From: an uncultured Sulfuricurvum sp.
Lineage (GTDB): Bacteria > Campylobacterota > Campylobacteria > Campylobacterales > Sulfurimonadaceae
Assembly: GCA_903844635.1 (NCBI GenBank)
Contig: CAIMUF010000052.1
Span: 840-64,839 of the forward strand
Length of the DNA: 64,000 bases
Direction of reading: 5' to 3'
Shown here: positions 21,742 through 27,682 of the stretch, piece after piece
How positions within the stretch are numbered: the stretch's first letter is position 1
Layout of the letters: the number at the start of each line of letters is the position of its first letter
The notes under the pieces: model-generated
The model's database searches: none
Told to the model about the DNA's origin: nothing
The model's input: the letters and a program-made list of their open reading frames with translations, nothing else
Program-made: the position numbers and the translations under genes

Positions 21742-21745
<4 letters not shown>
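21413..21745 (+). CDS. Minimal nucleotidyltransferase (MNT antitoxin-like)
   Basis: LFGSYAYGTPTEDSDIDL (GS-x10-DxD). Confidence 0.88.
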
Positions 21746-22309
<564 letters not shown>

Positions 22310-22441: not shown

Positions 22442-23863
22442 ATGACCAATATTATTCTGTGTGGCGGAAGCGGTACACGCCTTTGGCCGATTAGTCGAAC
22501 CCTTATGCCCAAGCAATTTGTAAAACTTTTTGGTGACACCCCAGGGCAGTCTCTCTTGCAACGCAATTCACCTCCCAAATCTCTTTTTCAACTTACCGTA
22601 GAGCGTAATATTCCTCTTTGCAGCGAACAATTCATTGTCTCTAATGCCGAGCAGTATTTTTTAGCTTTGGATCAACTTGGCGAAATGAATGCGCAAAGTA
22701 ATCACTACCTTCTTGAGCCTGTTGGCAGAAATACGGCTCCGGCGATTGCATTGGCTTGTATGGCACTTGATCCCGAAGAGATCGTTCTTGTAACACCCTC
22801 CGATCATCTCATAAAAAATCAACAATCTTATGCCCAAGCAGTTGAACGCGCGAAAGAGCTGGCATCGCAAGATTATCTCGTAACCTTCGGAATCACTCCA
22901 GCATTTGCTGAAACCGGATTTGGCTATATCGAAGCAGACAAAGAGAATGGCGAAGAAGTTGTAAGTTTTAAAGAAAAACCTGATTTTAATACTGCAACCC
23001 AGTACCTCAATGCCGGAAATTATTATTGGAACAGCGGGATGTTTTGCTTTAAAGCCGGAGTATTTTTAGAAGAGTTACGTGAACTTTCACCGCAGGTGTT
23101 CGAAACCTGTGCAGTAGCTTTTAAAAACGCAACGACCAACGGCATGATCCGTATAGCACATGACGATATGCTTTATATTCCCGAAGACAGTATTGACTAT
23201 GCCGTGATGGAAAAAAGCAATCGCGTCAAAGTCGTAGTAGCCAGCGATATAGAGTGGAGCGACGTAGGGAGTTTCGATGCTCTCTATGAAGAGCTGCCAA
23301 AAGATGCCAACGGCAACACAGTATGCGATAAGCACATCAGTATCGATAGTAAAAACAATCTCGTTCTCTGTGAAGGGCGTAAAATTGCAACCATTGACGT
23401 CGAAGATTTGATCATTGTTGATACAGGTGATGCTTTGCTTGTTTCGAAAAAAGGCTCATCTCAAAAAGTTAAAAACGTGGTCGCAGAACTTAAAAATCGT
23501 AATACCGAGCTTCATAACATCCACCTCACCGCTCACCGTCCATGGGGAACGTATACGATTCTAGAAGACACTCCCGGATATAAGATCAAGAGGATCGTTG
23601 TGCAGCCAGGAAAGCGCTTAAGTTTACAAAAACACTTTCACCGCAGCGAGCATTGGATTGTCGTTAGCGGTACAGCGACAGTTACTGTCGGGGATCAAAC
23701 GCAAATCATCCGCCCCAATGAGTCCACCTATATCAAAATGGGTGAGATCCATCGTCTCGCCAATGATGGGAAAATTCCAGTAGTTCTTATCGAAGCACAA
23801 GTCGGAGAATATACAGGCGAAGATGATATCGTTCGAATTAGTGATGAGTACAACCGCGCATGA
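22442..23863 (+). CDS. manC: Mannose-1-phosphate guanylyltransferase/mannose-6-phosphate isomerase
   Basis: GGSGTRLWP, EPVGRNTAPAI, WSDVGS, RPWG and C-terminal cupin. Confidence 0.95.
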   Translation: MTNIILCGGSGTRLWPISRTLMPKQFVKLFGDTPGQSLLQRNSPPKSLFQLTVERNIPLCSEQFIVSNAEQYFLALDQLGEMNAQSNHYLLEPVGRNTAPAIALACMALDPEEIVLVTPSDHLIKNQQSYAQAVERAKELASQDYLVTFGITPAFAETGFGYIEADKENGEEVVSFKEKPDFNTATQYLNAGNYYWNSGMFCFKAGVFLEELRELSPQVFETCAVAFKNATTNGMIRIAHDDMLYIPEDSIDYAVMEKSNRVKVVVASDIEWSDVGSFDALYEELPKDANGNTVCDKHISIDSKNNLVLCEGRKIATIDVEDLIIVDTGDALLVSKKGSSQKVKNVVAELKNRNTELHNIHLTAHRPWGTYTILEDTPGYKIKRIVVQPGKRLSLQKHFHRSEHWIVVSGTATVTVGDQTQIIRPNESTYIKMGEIHRLANDGKIPVVLIEAQVGEYTGEDDIVRISDEYNRA

Positions 23864-24651
23864 ACCAATTAAAAGCTATTTGGGCGTATCGTTATTTTAT
23901 TATCAGCTCTATCAAAACGGAATTTCGAAGTCGTTTTGCACGTAGCAGTTTAGGCGGTGTCTGGATGGTATTACATCCGCTAGCACAAGTGGCTATTTAC
24001 GCCCTCGTACTCTCAGCCGTCCTTGCTGCCAAACTTCCCGGTATTGACAACCAGTATGCCTATGCTATTTATCTGATGGCTGGGACACTTGGTTGGTCAC
24101 TGTTTGCTGAGGTGTTTGGACGAAGCTTGGGAGTATTTGTTGATAATGGCAATTTACTCAAAAAAATGGCATTTCCAAAAATCGCACTCCCTCTCATCGT
24201 CACGGGCAGTGCATTGGTCAACAACCTTCTCCTCTTTGGAGCAGTATTGGTCGTTTTTGGGATTCTTGGGCACATGCCTACTCTTATGCTCTTGTGGCTG
24301 CCTGTTCTAATTGCTGTAACGCTCGCATTGGCACTCGGGCTAGGTTTAGCGTTAGGTATTATCAATGTTTTTGTGCGCGATATCGGTCAGATCGTCCCGA
24401 TCATTTTACAATTTTGGTTTTGGCTCACCCCTGTCGTGTATGTCTCTACGATGATTCCTGCAAAATATCATGCGCTATTGATGCTCAATCCCATGAGCGG
24501 TATCGTCATGGGGTATCAAAACATCCTTGTATACAACAAAGCCCCAGATGTAAGCACGCTTCTTTATCCGGCTACAATCGCCATTGTAGCACTGTCGCTT
24601 GCCCTCTTTATGTATTTTCGTGCGAATGAAGAAATGGCGGATGCGTTATGA
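23860..24651 (+). CDS. wzm: O-antigen ABC transporter permease Wzm
   Basis: FRSRFARSSLGGVW, RDIGQIVP, WLTPVVY, LNPM. Confidence 0.92.
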   Translation: MNQLKAIWAYRYFIISSIKTEFRSRFARSSLGGVWMVLHPLAQVAIYALVLSAVLAAKLPGIDNQYAYAIYLMAGTLGWSLFAEVFGRSLGVFVDNGNLLKKMAFPKIALPLIVTGSALVNNLLLFGAVLVVFGILGHMPTLMLLWLPVLIAVTLALALGLGLALGIINVFVRDIGQIVPIILQFWFWLTPVVYVSTMIPAKYHALLMLNPMSGIVMGYQNILVYNKAPDVSTLLYPATIAIVALSLALFMYFRANEEMADAL

Positions 24652-24652
24652 T

Positions 24653-25153
24653 AATTTTTAATTTTGAATGCTTAATGTTGAATCAAAACGTAAGAATGAG
24701 CAAGTAGCATGAAGCAAGAAAATATTATCTTAGATAAATCATTTGCTTTTGCAGTGAGAGTTGTAAAACTCTATAAATATTTGTGTGATGAAAAACAAGA
24801 GTATGTTTTATCCAAACAGTTGTTGAGAAGCGGCACCTCCATCGGAGCCAATATCAATGAAGCTCAAGCAGCGCAGAGTACGAACGATTTTATCACCAAA
24901 ATGAGTATCGCAAGCAAAGAAGCGAGAGAAAGCAGATACTGGATAGATCTTTTAATTCAGACAGATTTTCTTGATTCCAGTGAACAACACACTCAAACAT
25001 TGCGAGGCGATATTGATGAGCTTATCAAAATGTTAACATCCATCATTAAAACAACGCAAGAAAGAAATAAAAAATGAATTCAAAATTAAAGATTGACCAA
25101 CGGGAATGCCCTGGGGTTCAGAATTCAGAATTAAACATTCAAAATTCAAAATT
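24653..25153. mobile_element. Four-helix-bundle gene cassette bounded by 31-bp heptamer-based inverted repeats
   Basis: Left arm 24653-24683 vs right arm 25123-25153 match 27/31; flanking (T)GAT direct repeat; excision restores ATG ATT TCG CCT (MISPVLE) overlapping the wzm stop. Confidence 0.65.
24709..25077 (+). CDS. Four helix bundle protein (TIGR02436 / 23S IVS-protein / bAvd-like)
   Basis: DKSFAFAVRVVKLY, SKQLLRSGTSIGANINEA, KMSIASKEARESRYW. Confidence 0.9.
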   Translation: MKQENIILDKSFAFAVRVVKLYKYLCDEKQEYVLSKQLLRSGTSIGANINEAQAAQSTNDFITKMSIASKEARESRYWIDLLIQTDFLDSSEQHTQTLRGDIDELIKMLTSIIKTTQERNKK

Positions 25154-26378
25154 GATTTCGCCTGTCCTCGAAATCAGTAACATCGGCAAAGCCTATCGTA
25201 ACTACGGTAGTGAGCTATGGCGTATCCTCTCGTGGTTCGGACTGCGTTTTAAACCCGTTCATGAGACATGGACACTCCAAAATATCAGCTTTAACATCGC
25301 ACCGGGTGAAGCGATCGGTGTTGTTGGGCAAAACGGTGCAGGCAAAAGCACCTTGCTCAAAATCATTACAGGCACTCTCAAGCCAAGTACTGGCAGTGTA
25401 ACGGTGCACGGTAAAATCGCCGCAATCCTAGAGCTGGGGATGGGATTTCACCCCGACCTTACAGGGCGACAAAATGCCTACCATTCTGCAGGACTTATGG
25501 GCTATACAAGCGCACAAATCGATGCAGTAATCGATCAAATTGAAGCATTTGCAGAGGTCGGAGAGTACTTCGATCAGCCGGTACGTACTTATAGTAGTGG
25601 TATGCAGATGCGTGTAGCATTTGCAACCGTGACCGCCTATCGTCCAGAGATTCTAATTGTCGATGAAGCTATGTCTGTCGGGGATGCCTATTTCCAGCAC
25701 AAAAGCTTTGACCGTATCCGACAGTTCCAGAGCGCGGGAACAACTCTCTTGCTTGTATCTCACGATCGCGGTGCTATTCAGGCGATCTGTGATCGTGCTA
25801 TTTTATTAGAGCAAGGGAAAGTGATCCGAGACGGTGAGCCCGAAGAAGTGATGGATTTTTACAATGCTCTCATCGCGGACAAGGAAAACAGCAAAATTGA
25901 GCAAGTAACACTTGACAATGGAAGAGTCCAGACGATCTCCGGAACAGGCGAAGCCAAAGTCGAAGATATTGGACTCTACAATGACAAAGGCGAAAAAGTA
26001 GAGTTTGTCGGTGTTGGTGATCCAGTAGAGTTACGAGTGAAAGTGAAAATATATCAAGATATTCCATTGCTCGTATTAGGATACGGAATTAAAGATCGCC
26101 TTGGTCAGGTGATGTACGGAACGAATACATGGCTGATGAAGCAAGTATTAGAAGATTTGAAAGCAGGTAATTTGTATAACTTTATAATTACATTTCCCAT
26201 CAATATTGGGGTTGGTAATTATTCAATTCAAACTGCTCTGCATAAACACGATACCCATTTATCTGTCAATTATGAATGGAAAGACTTAGCATTAGTTTTC
26301 AATGTTGTTAATATTGACAAGACTGCTTTTGTTGGATCAACATGGCACGAACCAAAAATAGAAGTTAAACTAATATGA
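25074..26378 (+). CDS. wzt: O-antigen ABC transporter ATPase Wzt with C-terminal carbohydrate-binding domain
   Basis: GQNGAGKST, YSSGMQMR, ILIVDE, C-terminal beta-sandwich; first 26-27 aa derive from the repeat arm. Confidence 0.93.
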   Translation: MNSKLKIDQRECPGVQNSELNIQNSKLISPVLEISNIGKAYRNYGSELWRILSWFGLRFKPVHETWTLQNISFNIAPGEAIGVVGQNGAGKSTLLKIITGTLKPSTGSVTVHGKIAAILELGMGFHPDLTGRQNAYHSAGLMGYTSAQIDAVIDQIEAFAEVGEYFDQPVRTYSSGMQMRVAFATVTAYRPEILIVDEAMSVGDAYFQHKSFDRIRQFQSAGTTLLLVSHDRGAIQAICDRAILLEQGKVIRDGEPEEVMDFYNALIADKENSKIEQVTLDNGRVQTISGTGEAKVEDIGLYNDKGEKVEFVGVGDPVELRVKVKIYQDIPLLVLGYGIKDRLGQVMYGTNTWLMKQVLEDLKAGNLYNFIITFPINIGVGNYSIQTALHKHDTHLSVNYEWKDLALVFNVVNIDKTAFVGSTWHEPKIEVKLI

Positions 26379-27682
26379 TACATAACAATTTTTACCGAGC
26401 TTTTGAAGAGAAATATTATGCTCCTCGGACAGTAATTAAAGAACTTCGAAAGCAATATTTATCCTTTGTTGAACAACTCATCCAGCATTATCCATCTGGT
26501 CAAACATATGATTTAGGTTGTGGTCGTGGTGAATGGCTTGAATTAATGCAGGAGCTTCAATTAACCCCCTATGGTGTTGATCTTGATGATGGCATGCTAC
26601 AAGGATGCAGAGACTTAGGATTGCCGGCTGAAAAAGGTGATGCGGTATCGTATCTTAAAACACTTGAATCGGAAAGTCACTTAGTGATTAGTGCATTTCA
26701 TGTTGTCGAACATATTTCATTTAGTGATTTGCAAGAAGTTGTCCAAGAAGCATTACGGGTTTTAAAGCCAGGCGGCTTGCTCATCATGGAAACACCTAAT
26801 CCTGAAAATATCAAGGTAGCCACGGCTAATTTTTATTTAGACCCGACACATGTTCGACCTATTCCGTCCCAATTACTCTCTTTTTTAACAGAACATTACG
26901 GTTTTGAACGGACAAAGATTCTCCGTCTTCAGGAATCACAAGAAGTACATCATACACTATCCATCACTCTTTCGCAGGTCATTAGTGGTGTGAGCCCAGA
27001 CTATGCAGTCATTGCCCAAAAACAAGCTAGTGGTGAGATCATGTCAAGCTTTAATGAGTTGTTTGATAAAGAATATGGTTTATCTTTAGAAATGTTAGCA
27101 GATAAATTTGAAAATCGTTTATTAAAAATCGAAACCCAAACTAATGAAGCAAACTCGAAAGCTGATAAAGCATACGCACAGGCTAGTGAAGCAAGCGTAC
27201 AAGCCAATGAAGCAAATTCTAGGGCAACCAAAGCAGAACAAAGTGCAAATAATGCATGGCAACATTATCACATGATCGCAAATAGTACTTCTTGGAAGAT
27301 GACCAAGTCATTGCGATTGGCAGGTAAATTTACAAGATGGTTAGTCTATGGCTCTTATCATTGGCTCACATTTTCACCGACCAGCAGACCGCGTAGAAGC
27401 ATTAAAAATTTAGTATTAAAAATGAAAAATTATATTAATTCAAACCCAAAATTAAAAATGAAAATTATTAGTATCTTAAATCGTTTTCCAAAACTGAAAG
27501 CTAGGCTTAAAAGAGTTAGTCAAGACAACTATTTTCTATCAGACAATTCAAAATTGACCGCATGGAATGCCCTTGGGTGCAAAAGTCAAAATTTAGAATT
27601 ATCGCACTTGTCTCCAGAAGCCAAAAAAATATACAATGATTTGAAATATGCGATAGAGCAAAAGCAAAAGGCATCAAAATGA
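26375..27682 (+). CDS. SAM-dependent methyltransferase with coiled coil (WbdD-like O-antigen terminator)
   Basis: DLGCGRGEWL, FHVVEH, ETPNPEN, LDPTH; Ala/Gln-rich coiled segment; follows wzt. Confidence 0.8.
   Translation: MIHNNFYRAFEEKYYAPRTVIKELRKQYLSFVEQLIQHYPSGQTYDLGCGRGEWLELMQELQLTPYGVDLDDGMLQGCRDLGLPAEKGDAVSYLKTLESESHLVISAFHVVEHISFSDLQEVVQEALRVLKPGGLLIMETPNPENIKVATANFYLDPTHVRPIPSQLLSFLTEHYGFERTKILRLQESQEVHHTLSITLSQVISGVSPDYAVIAQKQASGEIMSSFNELFDKEYGLSLEMLADKFENRLLKIETQTNEANSKADKAYAQASEASVQANEANSRATKAEQSANNAWQHYHMIANSTSWKMTKSLRLAGKFTRWLVYGSYHWLTFSPTSRPRRSIKNLVLKMKNYINSNPKLKMKIISILNRFPKLKARLKRVSQDNYFLSDNSKLTAWNALGCKSQNLELSHLSPEAKKIYNDLKYAIEQKQKASK
27541..27603 (+). repeat. Solo heptamer-arm element inserted in-frame near the methyltransferase C-terminus
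   Basis: Shares ATTGACC-N4-GGAATGCCCT-N-GGGT and heptads with 25078-25152; TATC direct repeats 63 bp apart. Confidence 0.7.

Follow-up and report, generated by a model that had tools for sequence, protein, structure and literature searches.

A PF05635 cassette flanked by 7-nucleotide arrays at the wzm/wzt junction of a Sulfuricurvum operon, and a putative start-codon relay recurring among its relatives

We analyzed the junction of the genes wzm and wzt in a 64,000-nucleotide (nt) stretch of DNA from an uncultured Sulfuricurvum sp. (contig CAIMUF010000052.1; this whole stretch is called the window, and positions refer to it). The two genes are separated there by a small cassette, in which a gene for a four-helix-bundle protein is set between two inverted arrays of 7-nt units, and the reading frames of wzm, the cassette, and wzt follow one another through closely spaced stop and start codons. 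The features of the locus are as follows.

23860 to 24651, plus strand: wzm, the upstream host gene, encoding an ABC-2 permease (PF01061, E 4.6e-18; Wzm 76% identical in genome G058).
24648 to 24707, plus strand: mini-ORF (small open reading frame) of 19 codons, MIIFNFECLMLNQNVRMSK, opened by the original wzt ATG and crossing the left arm.
24650 to 24652, no strand assigned: GAT, left copy of a possible 3-bp (base pair) target duplication, read from the sequence.
24653 to 24683, plus strand: 5' arm, the array AATTTTT AATTTTG AATGCTT AATGTTG AAT, found by inverted-repeat search.
24709 to 25077, plus strand: four-helix-bundle gene, 122 amino acids (aa), PF05635/TIGR02436 (profile and PDB matches; dN/dS about 0.09).
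25074 to 25076, plus strand: cassette-supplied ATG, forming ATGA with the four-helix TGA at 25075-25077; proposed present start of Wzt, conserved in the related cassettes L033 and L034.
25078 to 25094, plus strand: 3' array, proximal part, ATTCAAA ATTAAAG ATT, the "alternative arm" of the earlier note.
25095 to 25118, plus strand: nested 24-nt hairpin element, GACCAACGGGAATGCCCTGGGGTT, interrupting the 3' array (second copy at 27556-27579).
25119 to 25153, plus strand: 3' array, distal part, CAGA ATTCAGA ATTAAAC ATTCAAA ATTCAAA ATT, the main predicted partner of the 5' arm.
25154 to 25156, no strand assigned: GAT, right copy of the possible target duplication, read from the sequence.
25151 to 25178, plus strand: 10-bp hairpin of -9.7 kcal/mol at the right junction, enclosing the in-frame TTG at 25152-25154.
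25074 to 26378, plus strand: extended wzt ORF, 434 aa, with ABC_tran and Wzt_C domains; native body from about 25157 (..SPVLEISNIGKAYR).

An earlier note, made from the letters alone, had described a chain of reading frames at this junction, and its individual links were recovered. The wzm TGA shares bases with the ATG at 24648 (ATGA), and this original wzt ATG opens the 19-codon ORF, whose TAG (24705-24707) ends 1 nt before the four-helix ATG at 24709. The TGA of the four-helix gene overlaps the ATG at 25074, from which the frame runs stop-free through the right arm into Wzt, with the leader MNSKLKIDQRECPGVQNSELNIQNSK, and the TTG at 25152 is indeed a junction codon in the Wzt frame. The 5' arm contains four stop triplets, none of them in the frame of the mini-ORF. 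It pairs with the end of the right array (24653-24683 with 25123-25153) as an inverted repeat of 31 nt at 87% complementarity, which is beyond chance (score 19, whereas 1000 shuffles of the flanks reached 13 at most); the inverted-repeat search also reproduced the 16/17 match that had been reported between the left arm and 25078-25094. The G+C content of the cassette is 33.5%, versus 44 to 45% in wzm, wzt, and manC.

The protein encoded between the arms belongs to the family named "23S rRNA intervening-sequence protein". Its 122 residues match Pfam PF05635 at 97.2 bits (cutoff 33.8; E 8e-28) over profile positions 2 to 106 of 106, and TIGR02436 at 110.6 bits (cutoff 24; E 4e-32). Its matches in the PDB include 2RLD (E 2.3e-36) and 2GSC (E 3.7e-5), each deposited with five chains. 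A dN/dS of 0.08 to 0.10 indicates strong purifying selection on the gene, and for this reason we argue that it is translated. The 2.67-Mb genome holds this one PF05635 gene only and no second array of the cassette type. We found no transposase ORF among the ORFs of the cassette; a scan of the window against Rfam gave a single match, a tRNA elsewhere, and nothing at the cassette; and a search of viral contigs for relatives of the four-helix protein yielded no close relative.

We defined a cassette class as a PF05635 gene directly flanked by inverted arrays of 7-nt period, about 430 to 560 bp in all and co-directional with the host operon. The window has such arms, in 7-nt phase, at 24653-24683 and 25078-25153 around its PF05635 gene, and the segment 24653-25153 is one copy of this class, which occurs in many bacteria. 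Relatives of the protein at 50 to 80% identity are found in Campylobacterota, Fangia, Francisella, Thiomicrospira, Rheinheimera, Bacteroidota, Ignavibacteria, Clostridia, and others, and a close relative is present in 66 of 401 sampled genomes of the same order. At most of the relative loci (L033 to L112) the gene is directly flanked by inverted heptamer arrays whose unit varies between subfamilies, and the arms score at least 12 at 62 of the 93 loci. The cassette is apparently a small selfish gene insert. Searches for published accounts of the PF05635 family outside rRNA gave only mentions in diversity-generating retroelements (DGRs; accessory protein Avd) and at cas loci.

The same junction could be read without a cassette in two relatives. 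In a metagenome contig (L116; wzm 86% identical in nucleotides, Wzt 80% in amino acids) it reads ...GATGCACTATGAGTTTACCAGTTTTAGAAGTC, that is, wzm-ATGA-wzt, with Wzt beginning MSLPVLEV..., and G058 likewise has an ATGA junction, with Wzt beginning MIQEPILEV...; the wzm/wzt overlap is also found in two remoter relatives (L004 and L005). The filled site occurs in the window, in a 98.9% identical strain (L115), and in a contig of a Sulfuricurvum metagenome-assembled genome (MAG) (L034, JAUYSQ01). Compared with the empty sites, the reading in the window, ...GCGTTATGAT(AATTTT...AAAATT)GATTTCGCCTGTCCTCGAA, therefore places the cassette 5 nt after the wzt ATG, in the ancestral wzm/wzt ATGA overlap, and the empty sites in L116 and G058 thus bear out the earlier proposal of an insertion at that overlap.

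GAT stands on both flanks of the cassette (TGAT, 4 bp, if the arm-terminal T is counted). When one copy is removed the sequence becomes ATGATTTCG..., encoding MISPVLE, which equals the empty L116 site in length (MSLPVLE); G058 is one codon longer, L034 has no duplication, and the arm ends are of low complexity with only 3 bp involved. The GAT/GAT (or TGAT) repeat could be a target duplication of 3 to 4 bp, which is not provable. Strain L115 has no indels in the cassette arrays relative to the window. Over 23860-25247 the two differ at 14 positions in wzm (792 nt) and at one (25101, in the nested element) in the approximately 600 nt of the cassette and the wzt start, a pattern that implies either a cassette younger than its flank or recombination in the flank.

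We also considered simple vertical descent of the cassette together with its flanks and rejected it. Between the window and L034, dS is 0.62 in wzm versus 1.5 in the four-helix gene (nucleotide identity of wzm between the window and the Sulfuricurvum MAG, about 89%), and identity along the four-helix gene is mosaic, passing from 95% to 53% to 89%. The 5' part of the window's gene is closest to L034, at the same site, whereas its last 60 nt equal those of the cassette L033, which precedes another ABC-ATPase gene. This distribution points to putative exchange, or recombination, between cassettes.

We then considered how wzt would be translated behind the insert. The junctions manC/wzm, wzm/mini-ORF, four-helix gene/wzt, wzt/methyltransferase, and methyltransferase/glycosyltransferase are all ATGA overlaps, and the single exception in the operon is TAG-C-ATG between the mini-ORF and the four-helix gene; a clear Shine-Dalgarno sequence is absent at every junction. 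Since the junctions overlap without clear Shine-Dalgarno sequences, coupling would be the normal mode of this operon, and the cassette fits into it: by the criterion of sequence, all junctions, its own included, have the stop/start spacing typical of coupled gene pairs. The cassette of L034 keeps all three of its junctions despite differing sequences: wzm ends in TAATG, the mini-ORF has 13 codons and its TGA shares bases with the four-helix ATG, the four-helix gene closes with ATGA, and the leader reads MSNSKLNIEHLTLPST/VLEVTNIGKAY. The leader in the window is longer than that of L034 by 14 codons (42 nt, made up of the 24-nt insert and other length differences), and the frame is therefore kept. 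The gene callers of the source assemblies also choose the ATG at 25074. A promoter and terminator scan gave no excess over shuffles and no plus-strand match within the cassette, although it is a weak test for Campylobacterales promoters. We consider it probable that Wzt is made from the ATG at 25074 with a 26-residue, repeat-encoded leader; we are less sure that this ATG would be reached by termination and reinitiation along wzm, the mini-ORF, and the four-helix gene and not by independent initiation.

That the insertion inactivated wzt or made the operon polar, with the intact frame a recent accident, is scarcely credible. Nothing specific speaks for it beyond the presence of a single cassette in the genome, while wzt and the downstream genes are intact, the dN/dS of wzt relative to L116 is about 0.11 (purifying selection), and the filled site has kept its frames both in L115 and in the diverged L034. 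A separate observation concerns the far side of the L034 cassette (L034 positions 1880-2300), where about 14 codons of wzt are left (..VLEVTNIGKAY) and the frame runs on into an unrelated ORF (FDFIAALKQKIYG...LYFEIGKEIVAQQE...), so that wzt is truncated or fused there.

The earlier note had named absence of the relay from homologous cassettes as a way to overturn it, and we looked for its 3' half among the relatives. After de-duplication, the loci came to the 93 distinct cassettes mentioned above, 89 of them followed by a co-directional ORF of 120 codons or more. For 35 of the 89, the host gene has its first start between -13 and +15 nt from the final base of the four-helix stop, and its frame runs through the 3' array; for 17 of the 35, the following 150 nt offer no further ATG, GTG, or TTG. 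In a second sample of the same order, drawn once the pattern was known, the 3' relay is present in 21 of 28 cassettes; this sample partly duplicates the first, and of its approximately 20 new loci 17 show it. The 3' half thus recurs, often as the only start, and the putative relay characterizes the cassette family and is not peculiar to the wzm/wzt locus.

At least a dozen different host genes stand behind relay cassettes, among them murI, rfbB, fcl, galU, manC, pdxA, and genes for epimerases. The predicted leaders have the form M(x)NNSKFKIQNSKL, or its counterpart where the heptamer differs, and pass into the native N terminus within a few residues. The last residues of the leader and the beginning of the host protein are as follows.

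GalU: ...NSKL, then the native N terminus.
ManC: ...SFK / ITPVILSGGSGTRLWP.
RfbB: ...LKT / ILVTGGAGFIGSNF, at seven loci.
MurI: ...PTK / VGVFDSGAGGLTV, at nine loci with five different heptamers, eight of them with ATGA or GTGA at the four-helix stop.
PdxA: ...STL / KKIAISIGD.

Several points weigh against such a start and relay. The cassettes compared are related to one another, and the counts are not phylogenetically independent events. A stop-free 3' array gives long open frames easily, and some leaders could be artifacts of ORF calling where another start exists; the TTG at 25152 is a candidate alternative start of that kind in the window, where the ATG at 25074 has no clear Shine-Dalgarno sequence. 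RNase III could cut the A-U-rich stem of 31 bp, as happens in rRNA, and would then separate the ATG at 25074 from the body of wzt. As for the insertion itself, the cassette has no transposase, is present once in the genome, and has a GAT/GAT duplication that cannot be proven.

The open arrays, the in-frame TTG, and the missing Shine-Dalgarno sequence would all suit an independent start of Wzt at TTG 25152 or another internal codon, with the 26-codon extension merely an open frame and no relay at all. We regard this as unlikely. The TTG itself has no Shine-Dalgarno sequence and lies inside the 10-bp hairpin; it is not conserved, since the same-site cassette of L034 has no start codon at the right junction; the frame was preserved through the 42 nt of differences from L034; and the 17 related cassettes described above leave the host gene no alternative start within 150 nt. 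The hairpin at 25151-25178 is built from the last bases of the arm and the first codons of wzt, and in the deduced pre-insertion sequence it would enclose the wzm stop and the wzt start.

Returning to the start at ATG 25074, we compared the two arms across the 62 loci with scored arms. Stop triplets are more numerous in the 5' arm than in the 3' arm at 50 of the 62 loci and fewer at 4, with means of 3.2 (5') versus 1.2 (3') per arm, and 28 loci have a 3' arm without a stop in any of the three frames, versus 5 for the 5' arm. As 7 is not divisible by 3, every frame of a 3' array encodes one and the same hydrophilic repeat (NSKFKIQ...). About 13 of 30 close relatives have a mini-ORF that crosses the left arm and terminates at +3 (where ATGA or GTGA supplies the TGA) or +10 relative to the four-helix start, and these mini-ORFs resemble that of the window (..NFECLMLN..). 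The four-helix gene carries those stops in the other two frames of its conserved 5' end, which in part produces this pattern automatically; the 5' half of the relay is therefore plausible from these sequences but weaker than the 3' half.

A second instance of insertion directly behind a host ATG is seen, judging by the compared sequences, at the junction of gmd and fcl. The empty junctions of many Campylobacterales read ...TTTGAGTAG-(8-10 nt)-ATG CAA AAA GAT..., giving MQKDSKIYVAGH (MQKDSKIY...). The filled locus (L045, the same as L120 and L147) reads gmd-TAG-AGTGGAGATA-ATG-(arm...four-helix gene...arm)-CAAAAACAC, giving ...NSKL/QKHSRVFVAGG. The host ATG stays upstream there and opens a left-arm mini-ORF (MLNFECLMLNWRRCER) that ends 10 nt into the four-helix gene; the mini-ORF of the window (..FNFECLMLN..) uses the same frame of the arm.

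In L156 and L161, the gmd/fcl junction holds an insert of a different type, an ORF of about 160 residues (MYKDFDNWNN...FLRPVLVYKKFNN...) fused in frame ahead of Fcl. Solo heptamer arrays lie in frame within host proteins, near codon 50 of fcl (L037, L039, L045, L046, and L104) and in epimerases (L048 and L059); the internal array of Fcl, for example PNNSKFKIKNSTLKTN, is missing in Francisella Fcl and in the majority of Campylobacterales Fcl proteins. At the fcl loci, the left arm of the cassette pairs best with this internal array.

We propose the following mechanism for the cassette. The stop-rich 5' array would close any host frame that enters the cassette, a start codon overlapping or abutting the four-helix stop would restart the host frame, and the 3' array, with few or no stops, would let the restarted frame reach the native N terminus. 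In the window, ribosomes would be handed from wzm to the mini-ORF, to the four-helix gene, and to wzt over overlaps of 4 nt or a gap of 1 nt, and those translating the mini-ORF would hold the stem of the arms open. Such a layout would make the insertion nonpolar.

The right array has been altered by a second, smaller insertion. Without the nested element it consists of 7.4 units (ATTCAAA ATTAAAG ATTCAGA ATTCAGA ATTAAAC ATTCAAA ATTCAAA ATT), and excising 25095-25118 restores a perfect 7-nt phase over 25078-25153; the 24 nt of the nested element amount to 8 codons, and the frame is therefore kept. A second copy, GACCGCATGGAATGCCCTTGGGTG, lies at 27556-27579 in a solo heptamer array of the methyltransferase gene, at the same position of the unit (ATT^CARA). 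The consensus of the element is GACC-N4-GGAATGCCCTKGGG-GTK; both copies are base-precise at ATT^CARA and in frame within coding sequence, and they are the only convincing ones in the genome. At 22520-22575 of the window, ManC has about 13 extra residues (GDTPGQSLLQRNSPPK) relative to its G058 orthologue (FDGQSLFQ), and the minus strand of this insert (AGACTGCCCTGGGG) resembles the core of the 24-nt element; the insert may be a third, degenerate copy.

These data bear on the proposal that the proximal and distal right arrays form two mutually exclusive stems with the left arm, as a regulatory switch that sets Wzt translation and O-antigen export. The 16/17 match between the left arm and 25078-25094 is real, and the minimum-energy structure of the region has the proximal pairing while the centroid has the distal one. 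Because the nested element split one right array, the proximal "arm" is simply the first 2.4 units of that array, and the closest orthologous cassette, that of L034, carries only one array. Tandem-repeat arms can by their nature pair in several registers (pairs I1 to I7 in our inverted-repeat search), and the RNA ensemble prefers the distal partner, with about 17 expected base pairs for the left arm versus 5 with the proximal part (predicted duplexes, -22.8 and -15.5 kcal/mol, respectively). Split or double 3' arrays recur in L033, L040, L051, and L125. We find a switch of this kind very improbable, and the claim of two alternative stems tuning Wzt was not supported.

The strong duplex raises the question of processing. 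In Coxiella burnetii's 23S rRNA intervening sequence (IVS), which is excised by RNase III, an S23p ORF lies in the loop of a 28-bp stem, and tandem heptamers, variable in number between strains, precede the ORF (Warrier et al. 2016, PMC4990558). The cassette has the same build, the Coxiella stem is cut by RNase III in vitro (PMC4990558), and the duplex of the left arm with the distal array is the stable one given above; the cassette RNA could by analogy be removed from the transcript, leaving wzm and wzt on separate mRNAs with their coupling broken. Cutting the stem would take the ATG at 25074 off wzt and, in the 17 relatives, would remove the only start of genes such as murI; stem cutting therefore cannot befall all transcripts. 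The left arm would be occupied by ribosomes translating the mini-ORF, and the fold of the whole region is of ordinary stability against background (z = -1.3), with only the arm duplex standing out. We judge excision of this kind to be distinctly unlikely at this locus, and we keep to translation of Wzt from the cassette-supplied ATG as the probable case.

A further idea concerns the period of the arrays. We put forward, as a tentative and rather doubtful suggestion, that the arms have this period precisely because 7 cannot be divided by 3, and that the arrays serve as a frame adaptor with which a selfish cassette could establish itself immediately behind the start codons of needed genes. The 5' array would halt any frame, and the 3' array would be open in all frames with the same harmless peptide. 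One unit gained or lost would shift the frame by +1, so that, whatever the frame of insertion, a slipped variant could reconnect the cassette start to the host gene, and later slippage could switch that gene (in the window, O-antigen export) between off and on. Slippage or phase variation has left no direct trace, as the 98.9% identical L115 has no array indel. In Fangia hongkongensis (L040, 2870-2960), the left arm has expanded to about 13 perfect ATGAATT units, which shows that an array can gain many units.

Comparison with known systems places the cassette closest to the 23S rRNA IVS. Like the IVSs of Coxiella, and also of Leptospira, Brucella, and Xanthomonas, it has an S23p/PF05635 gene looped by terminal inverted repeats, heptamers next to the ORF start, a length of about 430 to 500 nt, and no transposase, and the IVS has been suggested to be selfish or formerly mobile (PMC4990558). 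The IVS, however, sits in helix 9, 25, or 45 of 23S rRNA, whereas the cassette in the window lies in an mRNA, 5 nt inside the protein gene wzt. The Coxiella IVS ORF is apparently untranslated and decaying (PMC4990558), whereas the four-helix gene of the window is under strong purifying selection, and unlike the IVS the cassette would give its host gene a start codon and a leader. The DGR accessory protein Avd (PMC10053308) belongs to the same Pfam family and has the same fold class, a four-helix-bundle pentamer. Unlike DGRs, the cassette adjoins no reverse transcriptase and no template or variable repeats; its neighbors are manC, wzm, wzt, and the methyltransferase and glycosyltransferase genes.

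Miniature inverted-repeat transposable elements (MITEs), such as the Correia elements of Neisseria, and palindromes of the repetitive extragenic palindromic (REP) type are noncoding and present in many copies per genome. The cassette resembles them in having terminal inverted repeats and no transposase, in lying within an operon, and in its possible short target duplication and its transcript hairpin, a possible RNase III site. It differs in carrying a conserved protein gene, in being single copy, and in arms that are tandem 7-nt arrays whose sequence differs between subfamilies. Translational coupling through overlapping stop and start codons (ATGA and TAATG) is familiar from bacterial operons; the window differs in that the chain would be partly supplied by an inserted element and the restarted protein would bear a repeat-encoded leader. 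Short arrays of 7-nt period in and between genes, with small elements nested within them, are a likeness to heptamer arrays such as the short tandemly repeated repetitive (STRR) sequences of cyanobacteria the TAACTGA arrays of Beggiatoaceae (PMC4679880), and heptameric repeats (PMC4692102); in the titles and abstracts of these papers, the arrays are connected neither with a four-helix-bundle gene nor with donation of a start codon.

Elsewhere in the operon region, a HEPN gene (PF05168) lies at 21742-22309 of the window with a nucleotidyltransferase gene just upstream, and it precedes a 61-aa fragment resembling the 3' end of a gene of the rfbB/GDP-mannose-dehydratase type. The arrangement suggests a toxin-antitoxin-like module inserted in a region of sugar-nucleotide genes.

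The 23S rRNA IVSs and their S23p genes have been without explanation for decades, and the same kind of element is found here inside protein-coding operons. The layout of the cassette would explain how it can reside at the front of needed genes (murI, rfbB, fcl, and wzt) without silencing them. If this is true, many annotated N termini in such genomes would be element encoded, PF05635 genes would be translated within host operons, and the 7-nt arrays would have a concrete functional rationale. The wzm/wzt locus, with its clean pair of filled and empty sites, offers a place to study how such cassettes move.

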